Source: Caldilineae bacterium
GTDB taxonomy: Bacteria > Chloroflexota > Anaerolineae > DTLA01
Reading direction: 5' to 3'
Length of the DNA stretch: 41,908 nucleotides
Assembly: GCA_037446815.1 (NCBI GenBank)
Contig: JBBIHX010000007.1
Coordinates: 1 to 41,908 of the forward strand
The position numbers and the translations under genes were made by a program. The notes under the pieces were generated by a model. The model searched no databases. It had not been told where the DNA came from and was given only the letters and a program-made list of their open reading frames with translations. Below are positions 4,390-28,576 of this stretch, piece after piece (positions within the stretch are counted from its first letter, which is position 1; the number at the start of each line of letters is the position of its first letter).

Positions 4390-4470
4390 GCTCTCCTCGC
4401 TGTTGGCCGAAGTTGATGCTGGGATGTGCCCCGCGCGTCTGCGCACGGGAGCCTTGGGAAAGGCGGCGGT

Positions 4471-4499
4471 AGTATACCACAGGTCGCGTCCGCGGCCAA
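4471..4499 (-). promoter_or_regulatory. Candidate sigma70 promoter (extended -10) for the phosphohexomutase
   Basis: TTGGCC (4494-4499), 17 nt, TATACT (4471-4476) preceded by TGn. Confidence 0.5.
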
Positions 4500-4518
4500 C
4501 ATGGGCGAGTGGCTGACA

Positions 4519-4592
4519 TTCACCGCGGAGGACACCGAGGACGCGGAGGGGCACAAGAGACACTCTGCGTTCGCTGCGCCTTCTGCGCTGCA
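4519..4592. repeat. Degenerate 30-bp-arm intergenic palindrome (TTCACCGC.GAGGAC.C.GAGGACGC.GAG type)
   Basis: Left arm 4519-4548 against right arm 4563-4592: 20 of 30 Watson-Crick pairs plus 4 G:U pairs on the plus strand, by hand. 14-nt loop. Confidence 0.55.
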
Positions 4593-5461: not shown

Positions 5462-5497
5462 GTTGTGCCTCCTATGAGTAGGTGAGGTGGTTGACCT

Positions 5498-5526
5498 ATT
5501 ATAGCACATGTGGGCGAGTTTGTCTT
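5498..5526 (-). promoter_or_regulatory. Candidate extended -10 sigma70 promoter for the LysM lipoprotein
   Basis: TGcTATAAT (-10 at 5498-5503) and a weak -35 AAGACA (5521-5526) at 17 nt spacing, in the 86-nt intergenic gap. Confidence 0.55.
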
Positions 5527-9199: not shown

Positions 9200-9246
9200 A
9201 TCAGTTCCGCCCTGTGCCTTATCGGTCAACATAATCTGACTCATAC

Positions 9247-9276
9247 ATGATACTGGGTCTCGGTATGGCCTGTCAA
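9247..9276 (-). promoter_or_regulatory. Internal sigma70 promoter immediately after the ftsZ stop
   Basis: TTGACA (9271-9276), 18 nt, TATCAT (9247-9252). Confidence 0.6.
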
Positions 9277-9277
9277 C

Positions 9278-10501
9278 TCACGTATGCGCAACATCGCTGA
9301 AGCGCGCCGATTGGAGCCGCCGTCTCAGAAATGCGGGCACATCCAGGCTGTTGGGATCCCACCGCGTGGTGTAGGATGGCCATTCCTCGGGCGCGCCGTC
9401 GGCAGGGGCCTGCGCCGATTCCGGCGGAGGGGACGGCGCCTCGGCGGGTTGGGCGCCCTCATCGGCCGGTGTGGTGATTCTGGGTTGGGGCAGGCGGCCC
9501 GACGTTGCGCGGACGGGGATTTCGGCTCCCGCGACCTGGATAACCTGGGGTTCGGCGACGCCAATGCCGGTTGCCACCAGGGTAACCTGCACGCGGCCTT
9601 TCATCGCGGGGTCTATGGTGGTGCCGACCTTGATGTTGGCGTCCGGGCTGGCATGGGAGGCGATGATTTCGGCGGCCTCGCCCACTTCGGCCAGCGAGAG
9701 GTCATCGCCGCCGGTGATGTTGACCAGCACGCCGGTGCACCCCTGGATGGAGTCCAGGCTGACGAGGGGGCACTTGAGCGCCGCATGGACGGCGTCGGCG
9801 ACGCGCTTGGGGCCGCGCCCCTGGCCTATGGACATGAGGGCCTGGCCGCCGATGGTCATGATGGCGCGGACGTCCGCGAAGTCCAGGTTGATGATGCCCG
9901 GCTGGGTTACCAGTTCCGCGATGCCCTGTACCGCCTGGCGCAGCACGTCGTCCGCCACGCGGAAGGCGACGTCCAGGGTCATGTGCTGGGACACGAGTTG
10001 CAGGAGGCGGTCGTTGGGCACGACGATGAGGGTGTCCACGTGCTCGCGCAGGCTTGCGATGCCTCGCTCGGCGGCCCGCTGCCTGCGGGTGCCCTCAAAC
10101 GAGAATGGGCGGGTAACGATGGCGACGGTGAGGGCTTGTGTCTCCCGCGCGATGCGGGCGACGATGGGGGCCGCGCCGGTGCCCGTGCCGCCGCCCATGC
10201 CCGCCGCGATGAAAATCATGTGCGCGCCGGCCAGATGTTGGCGCAGGTCGTTCTGGGATTCCAGCGCGGCTTGGAATCCGATGTCCGGATTGCCGCCCGC
10301 GCCCAGGCCCCGCGTGAGGGTCTTGCCCAGTTGGATGCGCGTGCAGGGTTCGGATGATGCCAGCGATTGGGCGTCGGTGTTGGCGGCGATAAACTCCACG
10401 CCTGGGATGCCAATCTGGATCATGCGGCTGATTGCGTTGACGCCTGCGCCTCCGACGCCGATGACTTTGATGCGAATGGGATAGGTCGGTTTGTCTGCCA
10501 T
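9278..10501 (-). CDS. ftsZ: Cell division protein FtsZ (407 aa)
   Basis: IKVIGVGGAGVNA, NTDAQSL, GLGAGGNPDIG, tubulin signature GMGGGTGTG, T7 loop NLDFAD, a Pro/Glu-rich linker and C-terminal peptide LDVPAFLRRR. GGAGG SD precedes ATG 10501, so the track start at 11329 is over-extended. Confidence 0.97.
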   Translation of the reverse strand: MADKPTYPIRIKVIGVGGAGVNAISRMIQIGIPGVEFIAANTDAQSLASSEPCTRIQLGKTLTRGLGAGGNPDIGFQAALESQNDLRQHLAGAHMIFIAAGMGGGTGTGAAPIVARIARETQALTVAIVTRPFSFEGTRRQRAAERGIASLREHVDTLIVVPNDRLLQLVSQHMTLDVAFRVADDVLRQAVQGIAELVTQPGIINLDFADVRAIMTIGGQALMSIGQGRGPKRVADAVHAALKCPLVSLDSIQGCTGVLVNITGGDDLSLAEVGEAAEIIASHASPDANIKVGTTIDPAMKGRVQVTLVATGIGVAEPQVIQVAGAEIPVRATSGRLPQPRITTPADEGAQPAEAPSPPPESAQAPADGAPEEWPSYTTRWDPNSLDVPAFLRRRLQSARFSDVAHT

Positions 10502-10518
10502 GGCCGCCTCCGTGTGCG

Positions 10519-13056
10519 TTAGGGATTCCAGTTGAGCCAGCGGCTTAGCCATTCTTCCAGGCTTGACCAGTGGAATGGCCCCGAACCTTTGACCTCCAGG
10601 GCCACCGGGCCGAGTAGGTTGTTCTGCTCGTCCGACTCGGCCACAAGGCCGGTGTCGCCTTCGGTATGGTAAGCATCTGCCAGCACGTAGATGCTGTGCA
10701 TACCGCTTGCCAGATTCCCCGCGAAGTTGCCGTACTGCGGGTACGGATCCGCGGAAGACAGGATAACTTCCTCGCCTGGGGCCAGGTCGGGGACGTACCA
10801 CAGGATGCCGACGCCCAGGGCACTGGCGATGGAGTTGACATAAGGTTTGACCCTCGGGTCTATGTACAGTTGCACCCAGAAGCCCGGCGCAGGGCCATCG
10901 CCTTGATTGCGGACGGTTACACGGAGCAGGATGGGTTCGCCCGACTGCGGTTGCGGCGGGAAGACTTCCAGCCCGCTGACGACGATGTCCGGCGCGGTCG
11001 GGGCGGGCGCAGGCGATGGCTCCGGCGTCGGCTCCGGGGTCGGTTTGGGCGGGCACGCCTCGCAGGGGAGCGGGTACGCCGGGCTTTCGGCCAGGTTGCC
11101 GGCGAGGTCGGAGATGCGGAAGCGCACCAGCGTTGCCTCGCCGGGTATGCGGGCGTAGAGGGCGGCCTCTGGGCCTTCGGGCGTTACGATGGCGTCCTGC
11201 CAGACGCTCCACGTGGCCCCGCCGTCGGGCGACCAGGCGGCGAAGGCGCTGGCGGGATCCAGGCCGCTTTCGTCGTCGCGCACGCGCACGGCGATCTCGC
11301 CCATGTTGGATTGCACCGCGTCGGTCCACGCGCCGGGCGGGTTGGGATCGTAGAAGATTTGCGCAACCGATGGCTGGGACGAGAGGCCCGCCTTGTCCGT
11401 TACGCGCACAGAGTACGTGCGCGGGCCCGGGATTTCGGGCAGGGGCAGGGTCAACTCGCGCACGTAGGGCTGCGCGGGCGCGCTGCTTGGGTCATCGCCC
11501 AGGCCTATCTGCATGGCCTCAACGCCGCTGCCCACGTCCAGCGCCTCAACGGTCAGGGTGATGGTGGCCTGCGTGGCATACGGCGCACCGTTGTTGATGA
11601 GGAGCGTGGCCTGGGGTGGCGTGTTGTCCACCAACACCATCAGGGACTGGGCCGCTTCTTCGCCGCGGGCGTTGTGGGCCACGGCCTTGAGCAGGTGATC
11701 GCCGTCTGTGGCCGCCGTGGTGTCCCACTCGTGCTGAAGCGATGTCCCGATCTTGCGCTTGACCGGCTTGCCGTCTATGTAAAGGGTAACGTCCGATGTC
11801 GCCACGCCGCCCTGGACCTCTATCGTCTGAACGCCGGATAGGGCGCGGTCGGCTGTCGGCGATACGAAGCGCACCGACGGCGCCTGCCGATGGATGATTT
11901 CGGCGACTTGCTCGCGGAGCGCGGGGAGGCGGCTCTGCACCTGGTCGCCCGGGCACGTGGTGGACTTGGTTTCGCGGTGCCCGGCGATGTTGGGCAGGTC
12001 CAGGTCGCGGAAGATGCTGCGCCCGGTCGGGTCAATGCCGTAGCGGTCGCACACCCAGGCGACCAGGCGGGCCAGGGCGTTCATCATGGCCTCGGTGGGC
12101 GGCTCGGTCTGGAAGTCGCCGATGAGCGAGATGCCGACAGAACCCTCGTTGAAGCCGTAGTCGTGGCCGCCGACGACGCCTTCGCCCCCCTTGCGCCCCT
12201 CGTAGATGTTGCCGAGGCGGTCAATGAGGTAGTTGTAGCCGATGTCGCCCCAGCCGCGGGTTATGGCGTGGTAGTAGTACACGGCGCGGACGGTGGCGGC
12301 GGGGTCCTGCTTGGGGTCGTTGGGGGTGGCCGTGTGGTGGATGATGATCTTCACGGGCTTCACGTACTTCGGTTCCCATGTCATCAGGGTCTCGTCGGCG
12401 CCCCACCCTCGCCGCGGGATGATGGCAGGACGCTGCACGCCCGGGCCTTCGCCCTGGGGCAGGACCATCTGCATGGCTTCCTGCACGGTGGGGCCGGGCT
12501 GCGTGTCGGCGAAGGTCCAGGTTACGGCGGAGACAACGGGCGTCGCCTGGCCGTCGGCAGACGCGAACAGCAATCGGTACTGGATGAACCGCGCGCTCTG
12601 GGCGTATACCATATGGCCGGGCCAGTCTTCGGCGGCGGAGCGCACATCCTCGTCGGGCAGCAGTTCCTGCCACTCGGTCCACTCCTTGCCGTCGGCGCTG
12701 GTGCGGACGGCGAGGGTCAGGCTGGTGCTGGGGGGAATCTCGGCCTCCCAGCGCCACACTGCCACCGAGAACGGCGCGACGGCCGGGGCGTAGGGCGGAG
12801 ACGTGTACACGCCCGCGCTTTCGTAGCGGCCTTCGGCGTTGCGGGCGAGGGTCAGTTCGCCGTCCCCCTGGCGTTCAATCTGAATGCGCTGCAAGGTGCC
12901 GCGTTTGAAGTCCGACACCGTGGACTGCGTCCATGTGCTCGCGCTCAACGCCTGCGGTTCCGCATTTTGCAGTCCCACCTCTGCGCACCCGGCGATGGAC
13001 AGCACGAGCGCGATGATCCCGAAAAGACACGCGGCACGCAAGGCATGGCGTTTCAT
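10519..13056 (-). CDS. Lipoprotein N-acetylmuramoyl-L-alanine amidase (Amidase_2/PGRP type) with Ig-like and C-terminal CARDB-like domains (845 aa)
   Basis: Lipobox IAGC. Zn ligands and catalytic residues intact: IIHHTA, GDIGYNY, IAGHRE, TCPG. Ig-like LYIDG..WDTT..DGDH.LKAVA and CARDB-like PDIVVSGL..VTVRNQG. The start overlaps the upstream stop (ATGA). Confidence 0.9.
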   Translation of the reverse strand: MKRHALRAACLFGIIALVLSIAGCAEVGLQNAEPQALSASTWTQSTVSDFKRGTLQRIQIERQGDGELTLARNAEGRYESAGVYTSPPYAPAVAPFSVAVWRWEAEIPPSTSLTLAVRTSADGKEWTEWQELLPDEDVRSAAEDWPGHMVYAQSARFIQYRLLFASADGQATPVVSAVTWTFADTQPGPTVQEAMQMVLPQGEGPGVQRPAIIPRRGWGADETLMTWEPKYVKPVKIIIHHTATPNDPKQDPAATVRAVYYYHAITRGWGDIGYNYLIDRLGNIYEGRKGGEGVVGGHDYGFNEGSVGISLIGDFQTEPPTEAMMNALARLVAWVCDRYGIDPTGRSIFRDLDLPNIAGHRETKSTTCPGDQVQSRLPALREQVAEIIHRQAPSVRFVSPTADRALSGVQTIEVQGGVATSDVTLYIDGKPVKRKIGTSLQHEWDTTAATDGDHLLKAVAHNARGEEAAQSLMVLVDNTPPQATLLINNGAPYATQATITLTVEALDVGSGVEAMQIGLGDDPSSAPAQPYVRELTLPLPEIPGPRTYSVRVTDKAGLSSQPSVAQIFYDPNPPGAWTDAVQSNMGEIAVRVRDDESGLDPASAFAAWSPDGGATWSVWQDAIVTPEGPEAALYARIPGEATLVRFRISDLAGNLAESPAYPLPCEACPPKPTPEPTPEPSPAPAPTAPDIVVSGLEVFPPQPQSGEPILLRVTVRNQGDGPAPGFWVQLYIDPRVKPYVNSIASALGVGILWYVPDLAPGEEVILSSADPYPQYGNFAGNLASGMHSIYVLADAYHTEGDTGLVAESDEQNNLLGPVALEVKGSGPFHWSSLEEWLSRWLNWNP

Positions 13057-14444
13057 GGCGTGTCCCCTCCGTGGGGCGAGGGCGCCTCGCTTGCCTCAAA
13101 GTTGAGGAAGCGGCGGCCCTGGCTCGCCAGTTGGTCCAGGATTTTCTGCGTTTCGGCGGCGTCGGCGCCCGCGACTCGCTCCACGCGGCAGCCCGCGGCG
13201 CGAAGCGTCGCCTCGGCGCTGGAAGGCACGCCGGGCGGCTTGCCGATGATGGTTACATACCGGGCGAGGGATGCTTCTTCCACGCTGAAGCCGCACACGG
13301 GCTTGAAGGCCTTGACGTAGTTCGCCAGCATGCGCCAGTACCATTCGGACACGCCCCACTCCCAAACCGGGCACAGGACGTAGTGATAGATGGGATGCTC
13401 TCGCGGGGTTGTGCCTGGATCGGGAGCGGGCTGCGGTTGCGCGTTCTGGCGGGGGTGCTTGGGCAGGTCCTTCATGGCCTGAACCGCCGGCAACCGATGG
13501 CCGCTCTCCTTGTACCAAGCGTGGGCTTCAAATTGGCTCCCGTGGCTGTTGGCGAGAAGCCAGAAGGCGTTGTTGAACAGGTAGTCGGGCACGACGTTGT
13601 CCATGAGCATCTTGGTCATGTCCACGGCGATGCGGGCGTGAGCGGCTTCGTCCACGGGCGGGTACTTGGCGTGGTCATGCGCGCCGACGATGGGCCCGTT
13701 CTCGTAGCAGATGAGGGGCAGCGAACGACCCACACGGGCCCGGATGATGGCATCGTACCACTCAAACAGGTAGAAGCCCACATGGTCCTGGCTGCCTTCG
13801 GGGCAATAATAGGGGCGGGCGTTGGGCCAGCGCGCAGGGCCGCCCTTGCCCCAGTCTAGGGGCTTGTTGGACACGTAGTTGTGAATGGCGACGGCCATGG
13901 TGTCAAACAGGCCTTCCTTGCCCTTGAGCACAAGGTAGTCCAGCGCGGTCTTTAGGAAGACCGTGTCCCAGTAGTTGCCGCCTGGACTCAACGGCGTGAA
14001 TACGGGATACAGGCCCGCGGCCTTCATCGTCTCCAGGCAGGGGATGAGCATGTCCATGAATCGGTCCACCAGCGCAGGCTTGGCCCATTCGGCCCAGTCC
14101 CACTCGTTGGTGAGGTTGGGCTCGTTGTAGACGTGGGCATAGTGCACGCCGAGGGCCTTGTAGGTCTCCAGCAGCGAGCGCAGGGCCTTTTGGTCTATGG
14201 GGCGAACCGTCGGGGTGTACACGCGGATGAGCGGCTCAATGTCGGCTTGCACCAGCGCCTTGATGAAGAACGACGGGATGGGGTCGCTCACGTCCGAGAG
14301 CAGCACCAACCATGATGCGCCCATGGCCTTCAGTTCGGGCAGCCAGAAGTCCAGGTCGGCCTTGCTGTAGTGGAACAAGTTCGGATAGTAGTGGAAGCCG
14401 ATGCCTGTGTCTCCCTTGGGTCGCCAGTATGCTTTGATGTCCAC
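13053..14444 (-). CDS. Putative clan GH-A glycoside hydrolase with both catalytic Glu residues, plus one cell-wall-binding-repeat-2-like C-terminal unit (463 aa)
   Basis: GTG start with AGGAGG SD. VYNEPN (acid/base E108) and ICYENG (nucleophile candidate E248). C-terminal YVTIIGKPPGVPSSAEATLRAAGCRVERVAGADAAET resembles CWB2 repeats. No signal peptide; the family is uncertain. Confidence 0.7.
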   Translation of the reverse strand: MDIKAYWRPKGDTGIGFHYYPNLFHYSKADLDFWLPELKAMGASWLVLLSDVSDPIPSFFIKALVQADIEPLIRVYTPTVRPIDQKALRSLLETYKALGVHYAHVYNEPNLTNEWDWAEWAKPALVDRFMDMLIPCLETMKAAGLYPVFTPLSPGGNYWDTVFLKTALDYLVLKGKEGLFDTMAVAIHNYVSNKPLDWGKGGPARWPNARPYYCPEGSQDHVGFYLFEWYDAIIRARVGRSLPLICYENGPIVGAHDHAKYPPVDEAAHARIAVDMTKMLMDNVVPDYLFNNAFWLLANSHGSQFEAHAWYKESGHRLPAVQAMKDLPKHPRQNAQPQPAPDPGTTPREHPIYHYVLCPVWEWGVSEWYWRMLANYVKAFKPVCGFSVEEASLARYVTIIGKPPGVPSSAEATLRAAGCRVERVAGADAAETQKILDQLASQGRRFLNFEASEAPSPHGGDTP

Positions 14445-14456
14445 GTGCTCCTCCTG

Positions 14457-16961
14457 CTATTTGGAAACGGCCATCTTCAGGATGGTGCCTTTGTGGTCTA
14501 CCGTGATTTTCGCGATGAAGGGGCCGCGCAGCCCGTCGCCTTCGGGCGCTCCGCTGACGGTGAAGACGTATCGGTTCGCGACGGGGGCGGCCGTATGGGC
14601 AACCGCGCCCGAATGGCAACTGCCGGTGCATTGGCCGTTGCACAACACCTGCTGGCTTACGCGCACCTGCTTGGGCGCGAGCCACGGCAGGCGATGGCTG
14701 ATTTGCGACTGCACCTGCTGCATCAGGTCGCCGGGCACATCCGTGGCCGCCTGGTGCGCGCTGTGCTGACAGCACACGGCCAGCGATTTGCGCACTGTCG
14801 CCGATTGGGGCAGTTTGTCCCAGATGGGTTTCTGCCCTTCTATGGCGAGGGTGGGATCGCCGAACAGGTTGAAGGTGAGGAGGGTCTTCTGGTCTTCGCT
14901 GTCCAGGTAGCCCTGGCGGTTCATCAGGTCGTTGGCGAACGAGAGTTTGGCCCATTGGAGGGCCTGGCCGATGGGCAGTCCGCCTGTAACGGCGAGCCAG
15001 AAGAGCCGGCCGAGCAGGTCTGCACCGGCGAGCGGCGGCGTGAGCGAGCCGTAGGCCAGGCGCGTGGATCCCACGACGGCGCGCGCGCCCTCGTGCAAGA
15101 AGCGCAGCGCGATGGAGTCGTTGTGCGTGCGCCCGAGGATGTCCGCGCCGTAGCAGGCCTCGGTGAGGACGGTGGCCCCTGCTGCCCACGCTTCTGCGAT
15201 GTCGTCGGGCATCAGCGCGACGGGGAACAGCGGAAAGTCGGCGGCGAAATCGGGGTCGCGCTGGCCGTACCAGGACGGTTCGCCCTCCACGCCGTGCAGG
15301 TTGAAGTAGGCCAGGCGTGGCTTGCTCTGTGTGAGGACCGAGAACTCCTCGCGCGAGATGGGGGGCGACATGCGCAGGTGGCGCGCCTGCCCGATGACCT
15401 CAAACACGGCGCGCGACGCCTCTTTCCACACGCTGGCGGTGTATCCAAAACTGCCATCGGCAGGCGGGGTCTCGGCATCCCGCTTCCAAATGCGGGCGAT
15501 GGCTTTGAGGCCCTTGGCCGTCGCGGCGCGCTGCGATTCCTCGTGGGCCTTCGCGGCGTGGGCGATGAGGCGCAGGAACGCGTCGGCATCGTCGCAGTCG
15601 GGCAGGCGGCCGACGGCGCGCGTGGGGAGCAGCGACGAGCCGTTGCGCGCGGCATAGGGCGCGTCGGTGTAGATGTCTTCGTCCTGGTCGTCGGTCGGGT
15701 TGGGCACGCGGCAGCAGGGCACGATGTCGTCGCCGCCCAGGATGAGCACGTGGCGCAGGTCCTGGCCCTGCATGGTGAGGCCGTCGGCGAGGGAATCCAC
15801 GGCGGCCTTGACCTGCGCCGCGTCGCCAGGGTCTTCTACAGCCGTTCCGCCCAGCCCTGCCATCTGCTGGGGATCGTCCAGCGCCACGAAGTGGATGGCG
15901 CGGTTGTCGCCCGGCCCGATGGCCTGGACGAGGCGCTGTACAGCCTCGCCGAGGCGCTGGACGAACTCCGCGCCGAATTTGGCTTCCAGCGGGCCTTTGC
16001 ACGTGAGGATGGCGAGGGCCGATACGGCGGATGGTCGTTCTGGCGCGTCCTGTCCCGCAGCGCCCATCAGGTGGTCGGTGAGCCGCACCATCTCCACCTG
16101 GATGTCCTGCAGGGTGGGGCTGTCGGGTGCGGCTGGCGCATCGGCGATGGCGTCGGCGGACCGTCGGCCTTTGGCGGCGTGCCGCGATGAGCCGGCGGGG
16201 GCCGCGTCGGGCGGGTCAGACGGAGCGGCCCACAGGTGGCGGTAGTGGCCCTCCCCGCCGAAGGTGCGCTCGGCCACGATTCCGCTGGGGTCCAGGGCCT
16301 GGGCGGCGTGGAGCGAGGCCATGCCCGCCTCGGTCTGCCCTTGGCGCATCAGGATGTCGCCTCGGATAAGGGCGGCCTTGACGAAGTTGGGCCACGCGGC
16401 GGCAATCTGCTCCAACGCGGACATGGCTTCCTCCAGCCGCTCCAAGCGCCACAGCGTCTCAGCAAGGCCTAGCCACGCTTCGGGAAGGAATGGGTCGGAG
16501 CGGGTGATGGCCTGGTACTCGGGCAACGCGCCGCCCCAGTTGACCGACAGTTTCAGGCGCGTGGCCCTGCCGAGGGGAGAAGCCTCGCCGGTGGATTTCA
16601 GGTTCAGAAGGGATGGGAGCCGATCGCCCAGGACTAGACTCTGGTCGGCGGCGGACGGGCAAAGGGCGAAGGCGCGCACAAACTGGCGCGCGGATTGCTC
16701 GGACTCTCCGATGGCGCGCAACGCCTCGGCAAGGGCCAGGCGACATTCGGCGTTCTCGGGGTCCAGGCCCAGGGCCGTGTCCAGCAGGAGGCGCGCCTGT
16801 TGAGGCTCGCCGAGGCGCAGCCATGCGACGGCTCCGAGGAACAGTCCGCGCAGGTGCCCTGGGTACTGGCGCACGAGCGCCTCGGTTTGCTCTAGCGCCT
16901 CGCGCGCTTGGTTTTGTCTGATGTAGGATTCGGCCGCGTTGCAGATGTCTTTGCCTTTCAC
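14457..16961 (-). CDS. N-terminal TPR plus peptidase C25 (gingipain-like, caspase/hemoglobinase fold) protein (834 aa)
   Basis: TPR repeats in the first ~240 aa. C25-type motifs VLILGGDDIVP, TDAPYA, AVGRLP, YFNLHG (His556), TEACYG (Cys603) and FNLFGDP. GTG start at 16961 with GGGAG SD; an alternative ATG at 17015 is possible. No signal peptide. Confidence 0.8.
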   Translation of the reverse strand: MKGKDICNAAESYIRQNQAREALEQTEALVRQYPGHLRGLFLGAVAWLRLGEPQQARLLLDTALGLDPENAECRLALAEALRAIGESEQSARQFVRAFALCPSAADQSLVLGDRLPSLLNLKSTGEASPLGRATRLKLSVNWGGALPEYQAITRSDPFLPEAWLGLAETLWRLERLEEAMSALEQIAAAWPNFVKAALIRGDILMRQGQTEAGMASLHAAQALDPSGIVAERTFGGEGHYRHLWAAPSDPPDAAPAGSSRHAAKGRRSADAIADAPAAPDSPTLQDIQVEMVRLTDHLMGAAGQDAPERPSAVSALAILTCKGPLEAKFGAEFVQRLGEAVQRLVQAIGPGDNRAIHFVALDDPQQMAGLGGTAVEDPGDAAQVKAAVDSLADGLTMQGQDLRHVLILGGDDIVPCCRVPNPTDDQDEDIYTDAPYAARNGSSLLPTRAVGRLPDCDDADAFLRLIAHAAKAHEESQRAATAKGLKAIARIWKRDAETPPADGSFGYTASVWKEASRAVFEVIGQARHLRMSPPISREEFSVLTQSKPRLAYFNLHGVEGEPSWYGQRDPDFAADFPLFPVALMPDDIAEAWAAGATVLTEACYGADILGRTHNDSIALRFLHEGARAVVGSTRLAYGSLTPPLAGADLLGRLFWLAVTGGLPIGQALQWAKLSFANDLMNRQGYLDSEDQKTLLTFNLFGDPTLAIEGQKPIWDKLPQSATVRKSLAVCCQHSAHQAATDVPGDLMQQVQSQISHRLPWLAPKQVRVSQQVLCNGQCTGSCHSGAVAHTAAPVANRYVFTVSGAPEGDGLRGPFIAKITVDHKGTILKMAVSK

Positions 16962-17037
16962 GTCTCTACTCCCGTATCCGAACAGGGTAGGGTCATCTCG
17001 GCGGGCGCGGTGCATCCACCAGTCCGCCCACGTGGGC

Positions 17038-20000
17038 CTAGGCGGCGCTGGGTTCTTTGCTGATGAAGCCCAGGGCGCTCACCGTGGCCAGTTGCTTGTA
17101 CGCTTCGGCGTTGCCCGGCTCCAGGCGGACGGCATGGCGGAACATCTCGGCCGCCTTGCCGTACTCCTTTGTGCGCTTGTACAGGAGGCCAGATTTGACA
17201 TAATATTCGGCGTTCTGGGCGTTGATTTGGATGGCGCGCTGGTAGGCGCGCTGCGCCTCCTCAATGCGATCCTGCTGCTCGTAGGCTGTCCCCAGCAGAT
17301 ACTGGGCTTCGGCGTCGGAGGGCAGGAGGTCCACCAGTTTCTGGAAGTGGGCGGTGGCCTTCTCCTTGTATCCCAATTGGGCGCAGAGCAGGCCCAGGCG
17401 ACGATGGGCTTCGGCATGCTTCGGGTTCAGGACGATGGCCTGTTGGTACGCCTGCAGGGCCTCGTCGGCGCGCTCCTGCTCGCGGAAGATGTCGCCCAGC
17501 GCCACGTAGGGTTCGGCCTCTCCCGGCGCGAGATTGATGGCCGCTTCCAGGCACTGCGTGGCCTCGTGGTATTGGCCGAGGTTCTTGAAGGCCAGGCCCA
17601 CGTGGAGGCAGTGGCGCGCGTTTTTGGGTTCCAGCGAGAGGGCGCGGCGGAAGTGGCCGAGGGCTTCGTTCCACCGGCCCGCGGCGGCGTAGAGATTGCC
17701 CAGTGCCTCGTGGGCAGGGGCGTAGTCGCCCTTTCGGGTGATTGCCTCTTTGAGCACGTTGATGGCGTCTTCGGGCTTTCCGTCGTCCTGCAGCACCGCT
17801 GCCAGGCTGAGGTAATACGCAGGCTCGTCAGGAGCGGCCTCAATGGCCTTTTGCAAGGCGGCGCGCGCCTGTTTAGGTTGCTTCGCCTTGAGGTACATTT
17901 CCCCGAGCGCTGCCAGGTCGGCGGCTTTCGGTTCCAGCGCCACGGCTTTTTCCAGCAGGGCGGCGGCGGCCGAGTGGCGGCCCATTCCGGCGTAGGCCTT
18001 GGCGGCCAGGCGGTAGTAGTCGGTCGCGCCAGGCTGGAGTTTGATGGCCTTGAGCAGGCATTCCAGGGCGGATTGGTACTGCGCTTCGGCGATGAGCATC
18101 TCAGCGAGTTCTGCCTGCCAGGGGGCCACGTCGGCGGCCAGGCTCAAGGCGGCCTGTAGGGCCTCGCGTGCTTCTGCGGGGCGACCGGCGGCGCGTAGCG
18201 CCCGGCTCAGCGCATGGTGATAGATTGCCTCTTGGGGCCGCTCTTGGGCCGCCCGCGAGAGGTGGGCAGCGGCCTCGTGCGGGTCGCTCTGCTCAAGAAG
18301 GGCCATCCCCAGATGGTAGTGCAATTCGTCTGTGCCCAGGCCCATGCTTTCGGCCGCACGCAGTTCCTGGTAGGCTTGCGCGGGCTGGCCCAAGCGACGC
18401 TTGAGGATGCCGAGCGCCAGGCGGATGGGCGCGTGAGTGGGCGACAGCGCCGCTGCCCGCTGGAGCAGGGACAGAGCCTCGTCGGTCTGGCCGGTTTCCG
18501 CCAGCAGCAGTCCAAGTTCGGCGCTCGCGTCGGGGTTGGCGAGCTGGGCCTCGGCCAGTTCGGTCAGGGCGCTCATGCTCTCGGATAGGGCCTCTCCGTC
18601 CACGTGCCGCGGCTTGAGCCCCAGGGCCTGCTCGTGGCGTGCCTGGGCAAGATCGCGGCGGACGCGACCTGCCAGGGCAAGGATGTAGCGCGGCTCCGAC
18701 GGGGCGAGTTTGTACGCGCGTTTGAGCGCTGCTGCGGCGTCGCCGTCGTTGCCGATGGCCTCATGGGCCAGGCCCAACAGGTAGTGGGCCTCTGGCTGGG
18801 CGGCGTCCAAGCGGGTGGCCTGCTCCAGGATGGGCAGGGCTTGGGCGGCCCGATGGGCGCGGAGCATCGCGCGTCCCAGGGCCAGGGCGTAGGCCTGGCT
18901 GGCCGGGGCCAGTTCGGCGGCCCGTTGCCATTCGGCGATGGCCTGCTCCAGGTTGCCGGCCGCTTCGTGCAACTCGGCCATCTCGGCGTGAGATGCGGCG
19001 TCGTCGGGCGCGGCCTGGAGCACATGGGCGAGCGCCTGGATGGCGTCGGAGGTTCGCCCCTGCTTGCGGAGGGCGGCAGCGAGGCCGCGCTGAACCTCGG
19101 TGTTTTCGGGTTCCAGCGTGGCCGCGTTCTGGTACGCTTTCAGGGCCTCGTCCATGCGGCCCTGGCTCTCGTAGATTTGACCCAGGAGCGCGTAGTGGCT
19201 GGCGATGGTGCCGTCTCGGTCAATGGCGGTGCGGAGGCTCTTCTCGGCATCCAGGGCGCGGCCCATTTGCCACTGCACGCGGGCCAACATGCCCCAGTTG
19301 ACCGAGTCGCCCGGGTCCAGGCGGAGTGCGTGCTCCAGTTCCTCCAGGGCCTCCTCAAGCCGCCCTTGCTCGGCCAGGATGGAGCCTGCGGCGCGGTGCG
19401 CGAGGCTGCTGGCAACATCGCCGTCGCGTGCGGCTTCTTTCAGGAGGCGCAGGGCCTGTTCGGCCTTGCCCAGTTTGTGGAGCGAGAGGCCGATGCGCTG
19501 GAGCGCCTGAGCGTCGTCGCCGCAGACCTCGGCGGCGCGGGTGTAGGCGCGTTCGGCTTCCTGGGCCAGGTTCTGGGCGGCGTACAGGTCGCCCAGGTCG
19601 CACAGGATGGACGGGTCGCCGGGTTCCAGCGTGGCCGCGCGACGCAACATCTCGTAGGCTTCGCCGACCTGCCCGTTCTGCGCCAGGAGCGCTCCCAGGC
19701 GGCTGTGGTAGTGGGCGTTGTCGGGCGCGATCTCCAGGGCGCGCCGGTACTGCTTGATGGCCTCGCCCAGCCAGCCCTTGTGCCCGAAGGCCTCGCCTAG
19801 TTGCGCGTGGAGCGCGGGATCGTCGGGCATGAGGCTGATAGCGGATTCCAGCACAGCGATGGCCTCGTCGGGTTCGGCGACCTGGCTCTGGGAAATGGCC
19901 AGCGAGCGGCGGTATTCGTGGCGTTCGGGGGCCAACTCCACCGCTCTGCGGAGCGATGCGATGGCGGCATCCATCTGCCCCTGCTCCTGGTACAGGATGC

Positions 20001-23000
20001 CCATCTCGTGGTGCGCCTGGGCCAGGGAGGGGTCTGCGGACAGGGCTGCCGACAGCGCCCGCCGGGCCTCATCCCGCATTCCCAGGACACGGCACAGTCG
20101 GCCGTAGAGGGTCTGCGCCTGCGCCCAGTTGGGGCGGAGTTCCACGGCGCGCTTGCAATGGCCGAGAGCGAGTTTCTCCTGGCCTTCCTGCCCGAGGATG
20201 TCCGCCATCTCCAGGAGGGCTTCCGGGCAGTTGGGCGAGAGTTCTAGCGCGCGCTGGAACGCGGACTTGGCCGCTTTGGTATCGCCGGCCTGGCGCAGGA
20301 CTCGGCCCATGGCCGCGTGGTAGCGGGCTTGCATGGAATCCAGCGCGGCGGCCTGCCCGAATTCGCGCAGGGCGTCGGCCCAGTTGCGGTCCAACTCGTG
20401 CAGGACGCCCATTTCGTAGTGCACCGATGCTTGGTCGGGCGCCATCTGGAGGGCCTGCGTGAGCGTGGACTTCGCGCCTTCCAGGTCGCCAGCCTGTTTC
20501 TGCATGTCGGCCAGGCGGATGCGGTACGGCAGCGCCGAAGGGGCCAGGGCGACTGCTTTCTGGAGCGCATCCACCGCCTTGGGGATATCGTTGCCCAGGG
20601 CGTGGATTTCGGCCAGTTGGGCGTGCAGTTCCGGCTGGCTGGGGGCCAGTTTGAGCGCGGCGAGGGCTTCTTCCCGCGCCTCGTTCAGGCGGCCCAGTTT
20701 GGCGGCGGCCGACGCGATGCGCTGGCGGTAGAGCCACTCGGCGGGGGCGAGGGCGCTGGCCTGCCGATAGTGGCCGAGGGCGCGCTCCACGTCGCCCATG
20801 TCGGCGTACACCTCGCCGATTTGGAACTGGGCGCGGGGGTCGCCGGGCGCGGTAGCCACAGCCTGCGAGAGCAGGGTCGCGGCGCGGGCGCTCTCGCCGA
20901 GCCGGTGCAGGACAGAGCCGAGCCGAAGCGTTGGCTCAATGGATTTTGGCAGGAGTTGCGCGGCCTTCTCATAGACGCCGCGGGCCTGGGCCAAGTGGTC
21001 GTTCTTCTCCAGAAGGATGCCCAATTGCAGATAGGCGGCCCCGGCCTCGGGGTTCATGTCCAGGGCCTTGTCCAGGGTGGCCTGAGCCTCGTCAAAGAGG
21101 CCGAGCGCCGTCTCCACGCGGGCTACATCCACCAGCGCGTCGGCGTCGGTGGGCGCGAGGCGGGCCGCGGTGCGATAGGCTTCTAGCGCGGCCTCCAGGT
21201 TGCCCTTGTCCTCATGGATGGCGCCGGCGGCTCGGTGCGCCTCGGCGACGTTGGGGTTCTCGCGCAAGATGGCCTGTATCTCGTTCATGGCATCATCCGA
21301 CTGCCCCAACTTCTGGAATAAACGGGCCGTGGCAAGACGGTAGCGAGGCTCACTTGGGTCAATGACCGACGCCTGGCGGTATGCGTTGATGGCCTGGGCC
21401 AGTTCGCCTTGTTTCTCCAGCAGGTCGCCGAGTTCGGACATCCACTGGGCCTGACCCGGGCGGGATTCCAACGCGCGGCGGTACAGCTCAACGGCCAGGC
21501 CGCGGCGGCCCAGATGGCCTTCGGCCTGGGCCAGGTGTCGCAGATACTCAGCGTCGCCGGACGAGAGTTCTACGGCATCTTGGAAGCGGGCGCGGGCGCC
21601 TTGCCAGTCGCCTGCATCGGCGAGGAGCGCGCCGAGTTCGTCGTACCACTCAGCGCGGTCGGGCTGGAGCGCGATGGCCTGTTGCATGCGGGCGATGGCC
21701 TCATCCCGCATGCCCTGCTCGGCCAAAACGAGCGCGGCCAGGCGCAGGTAGTGCCCATCGCCCGGGGCCAGTTGGATGGCCTGCCGGTAGGCCGCGAGCG
21801 CCTCTCCGAGCCAGCCGCGCTGTTGGTAGGCGCGGCCCAGTTCGGCGAGGATGGCGGGGTTGTTGGGTAGCAGGGAGCCCGCCCGCTGCAGGCGCTCAAT
21901 GGCCTCGCCGGGCCTCCCCAGGCGATTGAGGGCAACGCCTGCCCAATAGTGGTGTTCAGGGGCGTTGGGCTGGCGGGCGAGGGCCAGGCGGAATTGCGAC
22001 AGGGCTTCCTCGCCGCGGCCCTCGGCCAGGTGGATGAGCCCTTGCTCGGCGCAGATGACGGCATACAGCGCCGATGCTTCATCCTGCGCGCGTTGCAATT
22101 CGGACTGGGCGCGGTCGGGCTCGTTCATGAGTCGGAGGAGCGTGCCGCGCTCCAGGTGGCGGGCGAGGCGCCCGACGTCAAGGGAGCGTTCGGGGTGGTG
22201 GAGGTCGGCGATGGCGTCCGTCGCGCGATCTTCGTCCGAGACAGCAGGCTCTTGCGGCATCAACGCCTGGAGCAGATAAGCGCCGGCCTCGGGTTCGCCT
22301 GCGTTCATCAGCGCCGCGCCGAGGCTGCGAAGGGTCTCGGCGGGGATGCCCGCGTCCTTGAGGCTGCGCACGACCTTGCCCAGCCGATCGGGTGGCAGGC
22401 TCTGCCGGAAGGCACGGGCAGCTAGGGGAGCAAGGGATGGGCTGCCCGCCTGGAGCAGCCGGGCGATGGCGCGTTCCGGCTCGGGGTGCAGCGAAACGTA
22501 CATCTCCCAGAGGGCGGGGTTGTCGCGCGCCAGGGCCACTTCCTGCGACTCGCTGAGATGGTCGCGCAGGGCGAGGGCGGCCAGATACCGCTGCAACGCC
22601 CGATGCGGGAATCGCACGCCGGAGTCGGGCGCGTCCACCAGGAGGCCCATCTGTTTGGCCGAAGCCAGCGCCCCGGTCTTTTGGCCCGTGGCGTGGCGCA
22701 ACAGGATCTCGTTGGCCTGATGCGCGCTGATGGCGTCGTGCCCCTGGCGCTCCATGTGCTCTGCCAGGGCCGCCAGCCCCATGGCGCGCAGTGCTTGCTC
22801 GGGCGAAGGGGAGGCATTGCCCTTGTCGGCGAGGATGCGGGCCAGCGCCGCGAGGACGATCTGGGCAAGGTTCCACCACGGGACCTGGGTCAAGGTCTCC
22901 AGGAGTTCCAGCACAATGGACAGGAACAGGGGCAGGTGAACCATGTCCCAGAGGACGCTGTCTCGCCGCAAGATGCGGTTGACCCGCCGCCGCTGCTCGC

Positions 23001-23667
23001 CGGTGAGCCTGGACGAGAGGATGGCGGTGATGTCATCATCGGACAGCGGGCCCAGACGGACGGCGGGGATGTCGGGCAGTCCCCAGGCGGCCCCAGGCCA
23101 GGCTTCGGGCCGGGCTGCGAACACGGCTTTGACCCTGGCGTTGGCTTGGGTCGCGGCGTCGCATATCTCGCGAACCCATTTGGGGCAGGGCGCCGCGCCT
23201 ATGCGATCCGCTTGGTCTACCAGGAATAGCAGCGATGCGCCGTCTAGCCACCGGCGGGTTGCATCGTCAGCAGTGCTGACGCCATATTTCTCCAGCGCCT
23301 GGGAGACGATGCCTTCGGGCGAGGCGTCGGAAGGGCACGCCTCTGCGTCCACAAGGATGGGAACGGGGAGCGTTGTGCCCTCATCCGGCGCGGCGAGGAG
23401 AACGCGGTTGGCCGTTTCGTGGGCCAGGTAGGCCAGGAGCGTGCTCTTGCCGGCGAGCGGCTCGCCGAGAACGAGGGTGAGCGGCCACATCGCGATGAGA
23501 CTTGCGATGTCTTCGGCGCGACCCTGGGCGGCGGCTCGGATCGCCGAGGTGGGCTGCAAATAGGATTGCCAGGCATGGAGCAACCGCTCGTCGCGCAGCA
23601 GGGCCTGCAGGTAGTCGGTGGCAGGTCCGCCGGCGGGAGCGCCCTTGGAGGAATGTTTGGCAGCCAC
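17038..23667 (-). CDS. STAND/NACHT NTPase with a very long TPR array (2209 aa)
   Basis: Walker A LVLGEPLAGKST, Walker B LLFLVDQADR, sensor AARP, HD1 HLPLFL and winged-helix FPHRALQRYLAA. About 1600 aa of contiguous 34-aa TPR units follow (roughly 40-45 by length). GTG start with AGGGGG SD. Confidence 0.88.
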   Translation of the reverse strand: MAAKHSSKGAPAGGPATDYLQALLRDERLLHAWQSYLQPTSAIRAAAQGRAEDIASLIAMWPLTLVLGEPLAGKSTLLAYLAHETANRVLLAAPDEGTTLPVPILVDAEACPSDASPEGIVSQALEKYGVSTADDATRRWLDGASLLFLVDQADRIGAAPCPKWVREICDAATQANARVKAVFAARPEAWPGAAWGLPDIPAVRLGPLSDDDITAILSSRLTGEQRRRVNRILRRDSVLWDMVHLPLFLSIVLELLETLTQVPWWNLAQIVLAALARILADKGNASPSPEQALRAMGLAALAEHMERQGHDAISAHQANEILLRHATGQKTGALASAKQMGLLVDAPDSGVRFPHRALQRYLAALALRDHLSESQEVALARDNPALWEMYVSLHPEPERAIARLLQAGSPSLAPLAARAFRQSLPPDRLGKVVRSLKDAGIPAETLRSLGAALMNAGEPEAGAYLLQALMPQEPAVSDEDRATDAIADLHHPERSLDVGRLARHLERGTLLRLMNEPDRAQSELQRAQDEASALYAVICAEQGLIHLAEGRGEEALSQFRLALARQPNAPEHHYWAGVALNRLGRPGEAIERLQRAGSLLPNNPAILAELGRAYQQRGWLGEALAAYRQAIQLAPGDGHYLRLAALVLAEQGMRDEAIARMQQAIALQPDRAEWYDELGALLADAGDWQGARARFQDAVELSSGDAEYLRHLAQAEGHLGRRGLAVELYRRALESRPGQAQWMSELGDLLEKQGELAQAINAYRQASVIDPSEPRYRLATARLFQKLGQSDDAMNEIQAILRENPNVAEAHRAAGAIHEDKGNLEAALEAYRTAARLAPTDADALVDVARVETALGLFDEAQATLDKALDMNPEAGAAYLQLGILLEKNDHLAQARGVYEKAAQLLPKSIEPTLRLGSVLHRLGESARAATLLSQAVATAPGDPRAQFQIGEVYADMGDVERALGHYRQASALAPAEWLYRQRIASAAAKLGRLNEAREEALAALKLAPSQPELHAQLAEIHALGNDIPKAVDALQKAVALAPSALPYRIRLADMQKQAGDLEGAKSTLTQALQMAPDQASVHYEMGVLHELDRNWADALREFGQAAALDSMQARYHAAMGRVLRQAGDTKAAKSAFQRALELSPNCPEALLEMADILGQEGQEKLALGHCKRAVELRPNWAQAQTLYGRLCRVLGMRDEARRALSAALSADPSLAQAHHEMGILYQEQGQMDAAIASLRRAVELAPERHEYRRSLAISQSQVAEPDEAIAVLESAISLMPDDPALHAQLGEAFGHKGWLGEAIKQYRRALEIAPDNAHYHSRLGALLAQNGQVGEAYEMLRRAATLEPGDPSILCDLGDLYAAQNLAQEAERAYTRAAEVCGDDAQALQRIGLSLHKLGKAEQALRLLKEAARDGDVASSLAHRAAGSILAEQGRLEEALEELEHALRLDPGDSVNWGMLARVQWQMGRALDAEKSLRTAIDRDGTIASHYALLGQIYESQGRMDEALKAYQNAATLEPENTEVQRGLAAALRKQGRTSDAIQALAHVLQAAPDDAASHAEMAELHEAAGNLEQAIAEWQRAAELAPASQAYALALGRAMLRAHRAAQALPILEQATRLDAAQPEAHYLLGLAHEAIGNDGDAAAALKRAYKLAPSEPRYILALAGRVRRDLAQARHEQALGLKPRHVDGEALSESMSALTELAEAQLANPDASAELGLLLAETGQTDEALSLLQRAAALSPTHAPIRLALGILKRRLGQPAQAYQELRAAESMGLGTDELHYHLGMALLEQSDPHEAAAHLSRAAQERPQEAIYHHALSRALRAAGRPAEAREALQAALSLAADVAPWQAELAEMLIAEAQYQSALECLLKAIKLQPGATDYYRLAAKAYAGMGRHSAAAALLEKAVALEPKAADLAALGEMYLKAKQPKQARAALQKAIEAAPDEPAYYLSLAAVLQDDGKPEDAINVLKEAITRKGDYAPAHEALGNLYAAAGRWNEALGHFRRALSLEPKNARHCLHVGLAFKNLGQYHEATQCLEAAINLAPGEAEPYVALGDIFREQERADEALQAYQQAIVLNPKHAEAHRRLGLLCAQLGYKEKATAHFQKLVDLLPSDAEAQYLLGTAYEQQDRIEEAQRAYQRAIQINAQNAEYYVKSGLLYKRTKEYGKAAEMFRHAVRLEPGNAEAYKQLATVSALGFISKEPSAA

Positions 23668-23679
23668 GGTTCACCCCCT

Positions 23680-23991
23680 CTAGATTTTGGAGATCATCCA
23701 GAACGCGACAAGACAGATGACGATGCCGCCGCAGCAGAGGAATACGCCGATGCCGACCGCGGTCCGAATGAGTTGGCTCACGGCTTCCACCAGGCGGGCG
23801 GCCGAGTCAATGATGGGCGCGATGCCGTCTTCCAGAGCGGCCCGGGTTCCGATTTTCGCCGACTGGGCCGACAGGGTGCGCATGGTCTGCTGATAGTCGC
23901 GGGCCAAGATGGTCCAGAGGCCGGCGGCGCATGCGGCGACGCCGATGACAAAGAGGGTGATCGCCATTCCGAGTTGCAAGTTGGTGATCAT
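23680..23991 (-). CDS. Small two-transmembrane-helix protein of unknown function (103 aa)
   Basis: MITNLQLGMAITLFVIGVAACAAGLWTILA (TM1), an amphipathic helical middle, then AVGIGVFLCCGGIVICLVAFWMISKI (TM2). AAGGGG SD; 12 nt from the NACHT start. Confidence 0.8.
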   Translation of the reverse strand: MITNLQLGMAITLFVIGVAACAAGLWTILARDYQQTMRTLSAQSAKIGTRAALEDGIAPIIDSAARLVEAVSQLIRTAVGIGVFLCCGGIVICLVAFWMISKI

Positions 23992-24086
23992 ATGCAAGCC
24001 CCTTTCTGGAAGAATCCATGAAATTCGGTCATGCACGTGAATGGATTCGCGCATGTTGCCGACTGCGCGTCTTTCACCCAGAGGGT

Positions 24087-24102
24087 TGCAAGTTCTATGC
24101 CA
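24087..24102 (-). promoter_or_regulatory. Sigma54 (-24/-12) promoter
   Basis: Minus strand TGGCATAGAACTTGCA, with GG and GC separated by exactly 10 nt, matching TGGCAC-N5-TTGCW at all but one position. It sits directly downstream of rpoN and its activator. Predicted TSS about 24076. Confidence 0.85.
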
Positions 24103-24119: not shown

Positions 24120-24160
24120 AAAACCTGACGGGCCATCCGGGGTGGGGGATGGCCCGTCAG
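24120..24160 (-). terminator. Intrinsic terminator of the deoR-rpoN-HK-RR operon
   Basis: Perfect 14-bp inverted repeat CTGACGGGCCATCC (24125-24138) / GGATGGCCCGTCAG (24147-24160) with an 8-nt loop, followed on the minus strand by GTTTTCT. Lies 52 nt after the regulator stop. Confidence 0.75.
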
Positions 24161-25598: not shown

Positions 25599-25620
25599 TC
25601 TGCTCCCCTCACAGTAGAAT

Positions 25621-28551: not shown

Positions 28552-28576
28552 GTCTCGTGAACCCTCCTGGACGCGC

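Follow-up and report, generated by a model that had tools for sequence, protein, structure and literature searches.

Introduction

Bacterial pairs of a NACHT/TPR protein (TPR, tetratricopeptide repeat) and a caspase-like protease are now taken, almost by reflex, for immune or cell-death systems; here, we describe such a pair that behaves like a conserved housekeeping module, found in a stretch of DNA of 41,908 nt from a Caldilineae bacterium (GCA_037446815.1, contig JBBIHX010000007.1, positions 1 to 41,908; the whole stretch is called the window hereafter). The cluster runs from rpoN, a sensor kinase gene, and a sigma54 activator gene, through a sigma54 promoter, into six genes that encode a protein with two transmembrane (TM) helices (the 2-TM protein), a giant NACHT-TPR protein, a TPR protein with a Peptidase_C25-like domain, a glycoside hydrolase-like (GH-like) protein, an amidase, and FtsZ. 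We read it as a chromosomal sigma54-gated scaffold-protease module that may be tied to cell division and wall remodelling, and we judge this inferred function to have about an even chance of being the right one.

Clan-CD proteases joined to TPR-like or helical repeats are known from Craspase (Csx29, or TPR-CHAT, of the type III-E CRISPR systems) and from separase, which acts at division; both are inactive until their scaffold or partner changes state. Filamentous Anabaena has a clan-CD protease, HetF, that cleaves PatU3, an inhibitor of division (PMC9457339), and this HetF-PatU3 pair is, by analogy, the nearest functional precedent for what we propose. A survey of NTP-dependent conflict systems in multicellular bacteria mentions neither C25 proteases nor sigma54 and finds FtsZ-like effector domains only rarely (PMC7159879); a 2026 survey of STAND proteins notes non-defence clades and does not note this cluster (PMC13581612), and a genomics paper on Chloroflexota discusses dcw, mraZ, and ftsZ and not the cluster (PMC10608941). 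Sigma54 itself was reported in only “some Chloroflexi” by a survey of its regulons, where it typically controls the cell exterior and cell division is not enriched (PMC3162934). A first-pass annotation of the window, prepared from the letters alone, knew of no description of this gene combination, and we found none in the literature either.

The phylum is deeply divergent, poorly studied, and mostly filamentous. If the link between the module and ftsZ is functional, it would give the first handle on the regulation of division or filament integrity in Chloroflexota, a case of sigma54 controlling ftsZ, and a non-immune role for a bacterial protein resembling the NLRs (nucleotide-binding, leucine-rich-repeat proteins), with a bearing on how such switches were recruited to immunity. 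In addition, three families without a Pfam model (and without a sequence relative in the PDB where this was checked) have a clear genomic context here, namely the 2-TM protein, the ftsZ-linked GH-like barrel, and a domain of about 85 residues that occurs both in the protease and in a small protein whose gene follows ftsZ.

Gene Order and Its Conservation in Chloroflexota

The genes of the region all lie on the minus strand, the GC content is even (0.60-0.70), and our gene calls, made from open reading frames (ORFs) and Pfam/NCBIfam matches, agree with the first-pass list. The cluster, in the direction of transcription, comprises the following features:

28577-29983, minus strand: rpoN (sigma54), first gene of the regulatory cassette (Pfam Sigma54_AID, CBD, DBD)
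25621-28587, minus strand: sensor histidine kinase (Pfam SBP_bac_3, PAS, GAF, PAS, HisKA, HATPase_c)
24213-25643, minus strand: NtrC-type response regulator and sigma54 activator (Pfam REC, AAA+ with GAFTGA, HTH_8)
24125-24160, minus strand: 14-bp inverted repeat, read from the sequence
24087-24102, minus strand: sigma54 promoter, -24/-12 elements TGGCAT-AGAAC-TTGCA
23680-23991 (ORF to 24054), minus strand: 2-TM protein, from its translation
17038-23667, minus strand: giant P-loop and TPR protein, 2209 residues (Pfam TPR families, NACHT)
14457-16961, minus strand: TPR and Peptidase_C25 protein, 834 residues (Pfam C25)
13053-14444, minus strand: GH-like protein, 463 residues (no Pfam match; AlphaFold2 model)
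10519-13056, minus strand: Amidase_2/Big_7/CARDB lipoprotein (Pfam)
9278-10501, minus strand: ftsZ (TIGR00065)

From the 2-TM gene to ftsZ, the six genes follow one another with spacings of exactly 12, 76, 12, -4, and 17 nt; these genes and gaps, as well as the residues Lys74, His556, and Cys603, had been given in the first-pass annotation and are all exact.

The window was compared with 96 related loci, every one from Chloroflexota metagenome-assembled genomes (MAGs) or metagenomes. These were gathered in four ways, through the protease, the 2-TM protein, the GH-like protein, and a metagenome scan (462 confirmed relatives, 80 loci), and they were annotated with custom-built hidden Markov models (HMMs); a degenerate-pattern genome scan, in which the patterns were narrow, gave 5 loci only. 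A cultured carrier of the cluster was sought as well, and MAGs and metagenome contigs were all that came up. In the linkage counts given below, the denominators include only loci whose flank is long enough, and the genes counted lie on the same strand; lineage-level counts refer to clusters at 60% protease identity, and ftsZ was taken as linked when it lies no more than 7 kb downstream of the protease gene.

By these measures, ftsZ lies downstream of the protease gene in 37/47 loci (15/21 clusters), and the 2-TM gene lies upstream of it in 49/53 loci (16/17 clusters). This arrangement is kept across deep divergence, with FtsZ as little as 44% identical to that of the window (median 57%) and the 2-TM protein at a median identity of 45%. 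The whole gene order is retained in L003, whose protease is 67% identical, and three loci found through the 2-TM protein (L009, L011, and L013) carry rpoN, kinase, activator, 2-TM, giant, and C25 genes, then a GH-like gene or MraZ, and then FtsZ. What lies between the protease gene and ftsZ differs by lineage, being a GH-like gene, MraZ, MraZ plus an amidase, or a GH-like gene plus an amidase, and in several lineages the genes overlap or are separated by gaps of 4-30 nt. Variable genes between two constant ends are, on comparative grounds, what one would expect if the co-location itself is selected. Thus, the synteny in relatives that the first-pass annotation proposed to check is present, and the linkage to ftsZ and to wall enzymes that it had noted in a single genome recurs; the cluster, as judged from these comparisons, is chromosomal and vertically inherited in Chloroflexota.

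Some loci have further genes beside the core. A second huge TPR protein (more than 1100 to 1900 residues, running off the locus) is encoded directly upstream of the 2-TM gene in two loci with a sigma70-type promoter, L001 (1-2777) and L007 (8-3382). In L008 (14172-17083, minus strand), a HEAT-repeat protein and a 585-residue protein are encoded just downstream on the opposite strand, and the latter has a weak SIR2_2 match (23.7 bits against a cut-off of 24.5) and could be a defence-type gene.

A Sigma54 Promoter and Its Regulatory Cassette

The sigma54 site TGGCATAGAACTTGCA (24087-24102) is intergenic, between the activator gene and the 2-TM gene, and it is one of four sites in the window with at most 1 mismatch to the sigma54 pattern. 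The count of near-consensus sites alone is no more than chance, with 43 sites of at most 2 mismatches observed in the window against 55 expected. TGGCATAGAACTTGCA is credible because the activator carries GAFTGA and RpoN carries its RpoN box, because rpoN, kinase, and activator genes are contiguous directly upstream, and because the element is kept in relatives. At the unchanged position, the relatives have TGGCACAGAACTTGCA (L004-L006), TGGCACACGTTTTGCA (L009), TGGCACGTTTTCTGCA (L011), and TGGCACGTTTCTTGCA (L013); more widely, TGGCAC-N5-TTGCA is matched at 10 or 11 of 11 positions upstream of the operon in 34 of the 50 loci with a 2-TM gene, a figure that becomes 30 of 34 where the activator gene can be seen. 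The promoter assigned in the first-pass annotation is therefore real and conserved in position.

The RpoN box reads ARRTVAKYR, and rpoN shares 11 nt with the start of the kinase gene. In the related loci with sufficient flank, rpoN precedes the kinase and activator genes in 22 loci, as found by ORF clustering, and the RpoN proteins of the relatives are 33-41% identical to that of the window. The kinase gene is kept upstream in 23/34 loci with sufficient flank, with sensor domains that differ among lineages, and the activator gene in 25/34 loci (7/10 clusters). In the window, the activator has its GAFTGA motif at residue 233 and a likely start at the ATG at 25598. A perfect 14-bp inverted repeat (24125-24160; CTGACGGGCCATCC, an 8-nt loop, and GGATGGCCCGTCAG, followed by GTTTTCT) sits 22 nt upstream of the -24 element and is kept in L003-L006; it may terminate the rpoN-kinase-activator operon, bind the activator, or do both. 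Given the activator and RpoN motifs, the contiguity of the genes, and the conservation of the promoter, the rpoN, kinase, and activator genes, the promoter, and the target operon form a self-contained cassette. The dedicated two-component/sigma54 control claimed at first pass is hence real, and the unit is larger than was then drawn, with rpoN itself belonging to it.

One locus without the module is also of note here. In L015, where the 2-TM, giant, and C25 genes are missing, there are a GH-like gene, ftsZ, and the gene of the small post-ftsZ protein; upstream of the GH-like gene (9940-9956) lies TGGCATGTTTCTTGTA, a sigma54-like element that has GT in place of GC at -12 and is close to the L013, L024, and L025 promoters. 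In L015, the module may thus have been deleted and the promoter retained.

The 2-TM Protein and the Giant TPR Protein

The first gene of the target operon encodes two hydrophobic helices joined by a basic loop of about 50 residues. Its likely start is M22, at 23991, with a ribosome-binding site before the ATG, and the resulting length of 103 residues is as in its homologs, of which there are 29, sized 99-111 residues. This protein belongs to no Pfam or NCBIfam family, and the ratio of non-synonymous to synonymous substitution rates (dN/dS) is 0.03-0.12.

The giant protein has a NACHT-type STAND NTPase at about residues 60-470, followed by about 1690 residues of TPR repeats. In the window, Walker A (GEPLAGKS, K74) and Walker B (LLFLVD, D151) are intact, and K74, D151, R186, and P246 (the proline of NPLFL) are invariant in an alignment of 7 sequences. 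The NACHT score of the window protein, 21.3 bits, lies under the Pfam cut-off of 26.7; orthologs score 33.2 and 29.4 bits, and a profile of the giant family matches the NACHT modules of NAIP, NLRP14, NLRP3, and NLRC4 over about 300 positions that span the nucleotide-binding, helical, and winged-helix domains (NBD-HD-WHD), with E of about 3e-5.

The repeat array is 84% identical to those of L004-L006, with 1 gap in 1687 residues, an unchanged number of repeats, and a dN/dS of 0.10-0.14, to be compared with 0.08-0.12 for FtsZ and 0.09-0.18 for the protease. From these rates, all parts of the module are under purifying selection, and the behaviour of the TPR array is that of a conserved scaffold, not that of a sensor that diversifies. 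Neither the giant nor the C25 protein has a signal peptide or TM segment, and no effector domain was found at the N-terminus of the NACHT protein.

The Predicted Clan-CD Protease and a Domain Shared with a Small Post-ftsZ Protein

The protease gene has a GTG start with a ribosome-binding site and encodes an N-terminal TPR domain (about 240 residues), a clan-CD Peptidase_C25-like domain, and a C-terminal part of about 95 residues. PF01364 matches with 38.9-40.1 bits against a cut-off of 23, at model positions 265-373 only, which is the Cys-containing part. The motifs NLHG (H556) and TEACYG (C603) are invariant in an alignment of 12 sequences, and the His-Gly/Ala-Cys dyad is kept in 96/96 loci. 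The protein is thus a predicted Peptidase_C25-like clan-CD cysteine peptidase, a prediction that rests on the partial Pfam match and the dyad. One member of the family, P0174, departs from the dyad (His to Arg and Cys to Gly, in YFSLRG and FSQAGFG) and is likely a pseudo-protease.

An exhaustive search at E of at most 1e-30 found 386 representatives of this family, mostly of 830-1000 residues with the domain in the C-terminal half; a word-indexed search had returned 16 relatives, and the idea of a rare family that this had given was ruled out. All of the members come from MAGs, and in public records they are named “hypothetical”, “TPR repeat protein”, or “C25 family cysteine peptidase”.

Over its last ~95 residues, the protease shows homology to a small protein (about 85 residues) whose gene comes right after ftsZ (hhalign probability 98.95%, E 1e-17). 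A stand-alone gene for this small protein occurs in 46 loci (for instance, L009 20009-20266, L015 12547-12762, and L043 15039-15272), including the module-less L015, and the domain has no Pfam family and no match in a profile search of the PDB. The clade of the window has no such stand-alone gene, and a LysM protein gene occupies the place after ftsZ. Within the C-terminal domain of the protease (residues ~735-834, window 14457-14760), there is a Cys-rich insert, CCQH...C..C...C.C, that is absent from the stand-alone proteins and may be a metal-binding site. In 20 loci (for example, L043 15550-16320), the small post-ftsZ gene is followed by the gene of a membrane-anchored protein of about 280 residues without a Pfam match.

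The GH-Like Protein, the Amidase, and FtsZ

The GH-like protein has no match in Pfam or NCBIfam, and its AlphaFold2 model (predicted local distance difference test, pLDDT, 89.4) has a (beta/alpha)8 barrel at about residues 1-335 and an alpha/beta C-terminal domain. In Foldseek, the best match of the model is PslG/GH39 (E 1.5e-10), along with GH128, GH26, GH53, and GH1 (E 1e-10 to 1e-6, probability 1.0), so that the predicted structure confirms a GH clan-A fold. The two glutamates E108 (NEP motif, strand 4) and E248 (strand 7) are present in the window's protein and retained in its clade. Among 35 members of the family that were compared, 16 keep the first Glu and 13 the second, with DRPN and Gly/Ala in many of the others; P0125 and P0163, encoded directly before ftsZ in loci without the module, have DRPN or DKPN and no second Glu. 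Therefore, of the GH-A hydrolase named in the first-pass annotation, the fold is borne out by the model, and about half of the family has lost the catalytic glutamates. The family comprises at least 154 proteins, Chloroflexota only, and its gene adjoins ftsZ even in loci without the module. The barrel is 43% identical to the N-terminal barrel (about 335 residues) of a SpoIID fusion protein encoded farther downstream in the window, and neither of the two proteins has a signal peptide. The usual site of SpoIID action is peptidoglycan, outside the membrane. A weak CWB2-like match (E 0.014) falls in the C-terminal domain of the GH-like protein.

The amidase is a lipoprotein N-acetylmuramoyl-L-alanine amidase with the lipobox LSIAGC in its translation. 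It is present in 12/47 loci and hence is a lineage-specific insertion; it is part of the operon in the window, as first annotated, and not of the system at large. FtsZ is canonical (TIGR00065, 401 bits against a cut-off of 295), with the C-terminal peptide LDVPAFLRRR. No sigma70-type promoter was found directly upstream of ftsZ or of the GH-like gene with a scan tool and a simple regular expression, which is a weak negative.

Flanking Genes and the Setting of the Cluster

Past ftsZ, the window continues with the following features:

9247-9276, minus strand: sigma70-like promoter (promoter scan, 11/12 positions)
7715-9244, minus strand: LysM protein, 509 residues (Pfam)
5991-7556, minus strand: paralog of the GH-like barrel fused to SpoIID (Pfam)
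4679-5509, minus strand: LysM protein (Pfam)
2929-4563, minus strand: PGM/PMM-family mutase (Pfam)

In the clade of the window, the genes after ftsZ are thus cell-wall genes (LysM, SpoIID fusion). The sigma70-type promoter at 9247-9276 (TTGACA, 18 nt, TATCAT) begins 2 nt past the stop codon of ftsZ, and the LysM gene after ftsZ may have its own transcript, possibly a nearly leaderless one. At the left end of the window (1-2900), two ORFs, 271-2694 (plus strand, 807 residues) and 32-748 (minus strand), have no Pfam match.

Farther upstream, beyond rpoN, lie housekeeping genes for a DeoR regulator, CoaD, RecG, two DegV proteins, FakA, Rpe, and RlmN. Those neighbouring ORFs that have a Pfam annotation have housekeeping or cell-wall roles and include neither an integrase nor a transposase, and the window has no tRNA genes, no Rfam RNA matches, and no break in composition. 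The first-pass statement that the genes sit in a housekeeping setting without the hallmarks of a mobile element is therefore borne out. PADLOC, which it had suggested running, reports no defence system in the window, only generic TPR, activator, and weak partial matches.

A Proposed Mechanism and Its Alternatives

In the mechanism that we propose, the kinase would sense a signal and phosphorylate the activator, which would open the sigma54 promoter and raise transcription of the whole unit. The raised transcript would probably include ftsZ, because no sigma70-like motif was found directly upstream of that gene, a piece of evidence that is weak. The 2-TM protein would hold the giant TPR scaffold at the membrane, the scaffold would dock the TPR-protease, and, in the lineage of the window, NTP binding or hydrolysis by the NACHT module would gate the scaffold. 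The protease would then cut a putative division- or wall-associated substrate, and this cleavage would link the activity of the Z-ring with the hydrolysis of the wall by amidase, SpoIID, and LysM proteins, deciding, for example, whether daughter cells separate or remain in the filament. The first-pass annotation spoke here of a putative “developmental proteolytic switch”.

A number of observations weigh against tying the module to division in this way. The relatives are MAGs or metagenome contigs throughout, and co-transcription through to ftsZ is something that we infer from gene spacing only. The AlphaFold2 model of the protease, built from 12 sequences, has a pLDDT of 65, and of about 40-60 in the catalytic part; it retrieves TPR matches only in Foldseek, and a profile of the catalytic domain has no match among PDB sequences. 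In 6/21 lineages, the 2-TM, giant, and C25 genes are retained without ftsZ nearby, and one group of these (L001, L007, L008, L032, L059, and L064) has the 2-TM, NACHT-TPR, and C25 genes only (plus a GH-like gene in L008), with a near-consensus TTGAC-N17-TAxxxT sigma70-type promoter and without either a two-component system or a nearby ftsZ. Hence, proximity to ftsZ is not required for the core to function. Furthermore, in about half of the loci and lineages, the giant protein has about 1620-1800 residues, with no Walker A and no NACHT HMM match (L011, L033, L035-L048, L053, L061, L073, and L079-L096), and the rest of the cluster is intact; in L011, it begins at the equivalent of window residue ~215. 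Since the P-loop is absent in about half of the lineages, a switch of the NLR type cannot be the essential mechanism of the conserved core. By this comparison, the P-loop was lost repeatedly with the remaining cluster kept, and the NTPase is an accessory of some lineages, including that of the window; the NLR-like NACHT-TPR switch of the first-pass annotation stands for the NACHT module of the window, and not for the core in general.

One alternative is mere co-location, in which the 2-TM, giant, and C25 proteins have their own sigma54-controlled role (in envelope stress, protein quality control, or nutrient response), the protease does not act on division or wall proteins, and the position of ftsZ reflects shared transcription or inherited order. 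The three-gene core stands without ftsZ, a GH-like gene, or a two-component system in L001, L007, L032, L059, and L064, and without ftsZ in L016, L065, and L096; the genes between C25 and ftsZ vary (GH-like, MraZ, amidase), as do the input domains of the kinase. We consider this explanation unlikely, though a serious one: several independent insertions, and a divergence down to 44-57% FtsZ identity, have not broken the adjacency, one domain of the protease recurs in the small post-ftsZ protein, and the GH-like gene is linked to both C25 and ftsZ. Another thought is that the cluster serves the assembly or export of a wall polymer, sheath, or exopolysaccharide (a giant TPR scaffold with a GH39-like enzyme, as in the Psl, Pel, alginate, or cellulose systems), or that the 2-TM protein is a holin-like exit for hydrolases that have no signal peptide. 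PslG as the best structural match of the GH-like protein, the usual rule of sigma54 over the cell exterior (PMC3162934), the lack of a signal peptide in the GH-like and SpoIID-fusion proteins, and the weak CWB2-like match (E 0.014) would fit this. It is, however, highly improbable, as no glycosyltransferase, synthase, or exporter is encoded in the cluster, signal peptides and TM segments are missing from the giant and C25 proteins, about half of the GH-like family is without the catalytic glutamates, and the 2-TM gene tracks the giant and C25 genes, not the hydrolases.

A further alternative is an NLR-like immune or programmed-cell-death system of multicellular bacteria, where the NACHT-TPR protein would sense an invader or damage, trigger the caspase-like protease, and, perhaps with the 2-TM protein as membrane effector, kill the infected cell of the filament. 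NACHT, TPR, and clan-CD protease are indeed the architecture of conflict systems enriched in multicellular bacteria (PMC7159879), the TPR-S model of Pfam matches residues 554-642 of the giant protein, and EruA, an antiphage NACHT protein, and PD-Lambda-4_A give weak partial matches (24 and 16 bits, respectively). We nonetheless find it quite improbable. No PADLOC system is recognised, the housekeeping context is fixed and the gene order is kept across the 96 loci, and the putative sensor is under strong purifying selection with an unchanged repeat number; the NACHT protein has no N-terminal effector domain, the P-loop is gone in about half of the lineages with the cluster otherwise kept, and the unit has its own dedicated transcriptional control. 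Except for the last, these are also the reasons why the evidence points away from a mobile defence island.

Our preferred reading remains a sigma54-gated scaffold-protease module that may be tied to division and wall remodelling, and that would operate like a clan-CD protease activated by its scaffold, not like a mobile defence system. A bolder form of this proposal, which we put forward tentatively and would ourselves call somewhat doubtful, is that a large part of the Chloroflexota has a lineage-specific cytokinesis apparatus, in which the rpoN-kinase-activator set would control ftsZ together with a membrane-anchored, NLR-derived TPR scaffold and a clan-CD protease that performs a proteolytic step of septation or separation, as a non-immune pair of NLR and caspase-like proteins analogous to separase or HetF.

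Comparison with Known Systems

With the sigma54 regulons that have an adjacent NtrC-type two-component system, the cluster shares the GG-N10-GC promoter, the GAFTGA activator, and rpoN, with the differences that here rpoN is in the cassette, directly upstream of the kinase, the activator, and the target operon, and that the target probably includes ftsZ. The GH clan-A enzymes of the PslG/GH39 type have the fold in common with the GH-like protein (Foldseek E 1e-10), as well as, in the window's clade, the strand-4 NEP Glu and the strand-7 Glu; in contrast to them, the GH-like protein belongs to no sequence family and has no signal peptide, both Glu are replaced in about half of its family, it is linked to ftsZ, and a paralog is fused to SpoIID.

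Compared with the Peptidase_C25 enzymes of the gingipain/PorU type (MEROPS clan CD), the protease of the window has the C25 match over the Cys half and the His-Gly/Ala-Cys dyad, with each of the two residues following hydrophobic strands. Unlike these enzymes, it lacks a signal peptide, a propeptide, an Ig-like domain, and the C-terminal domain of type IX secretion, and for this reason it is probably cytoplasmic; it adds, in turn, the N-terminal TPR domain and the new C-terminal domain. Its likeness to Craspase and separase is an architectural one, without CRISPR context or a detectable sequence relation. With HetF and PatU3 (PMC9457339), it has in common a clan-CD cysteine protease, a filamentous multicellular bacterium, and the division machinery as (putative) target, in a functional analogy only, as HetF is a membrane protein of the CHAT family, not C25-like, works without a NACHT or giant TPR partner, and is neither controlled by sigma54 nor linked to ftsZ.

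The closest architecture is that of the NACHT-clade STAND NTPases with TPR sensors of the bNACHT/Avs type and other conflict systems (PMC7159879, 10.1101/2022.07.19.500537), with which the giant protein shares Walker A and B, the sensor-1 Arg, the NBD-HD-WHD order, and the C-terminal TPR array, and the cluster shares the caspase-like protease partner and a host from a multicellular (filamentous) lineage. Contrary to those systems, the cluster has no fused N-terminal effector and is not recognised by PADLOC, its P-loop is dispensable in about half of the lineages, and its protease is encoded by a separate gene with a TPR domain of its own; moreover, it is chromosomal and syntenic, lies beside ftsZ under sigma54/two-component control, and evolves under purifying selection. 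Read from its sequence and context, what is new here is the combination of a STAND/TPR scaffold and a clan-CD protease in a setting that appears to be non-immune, linked to ftsZ, and served by its own sigma54.

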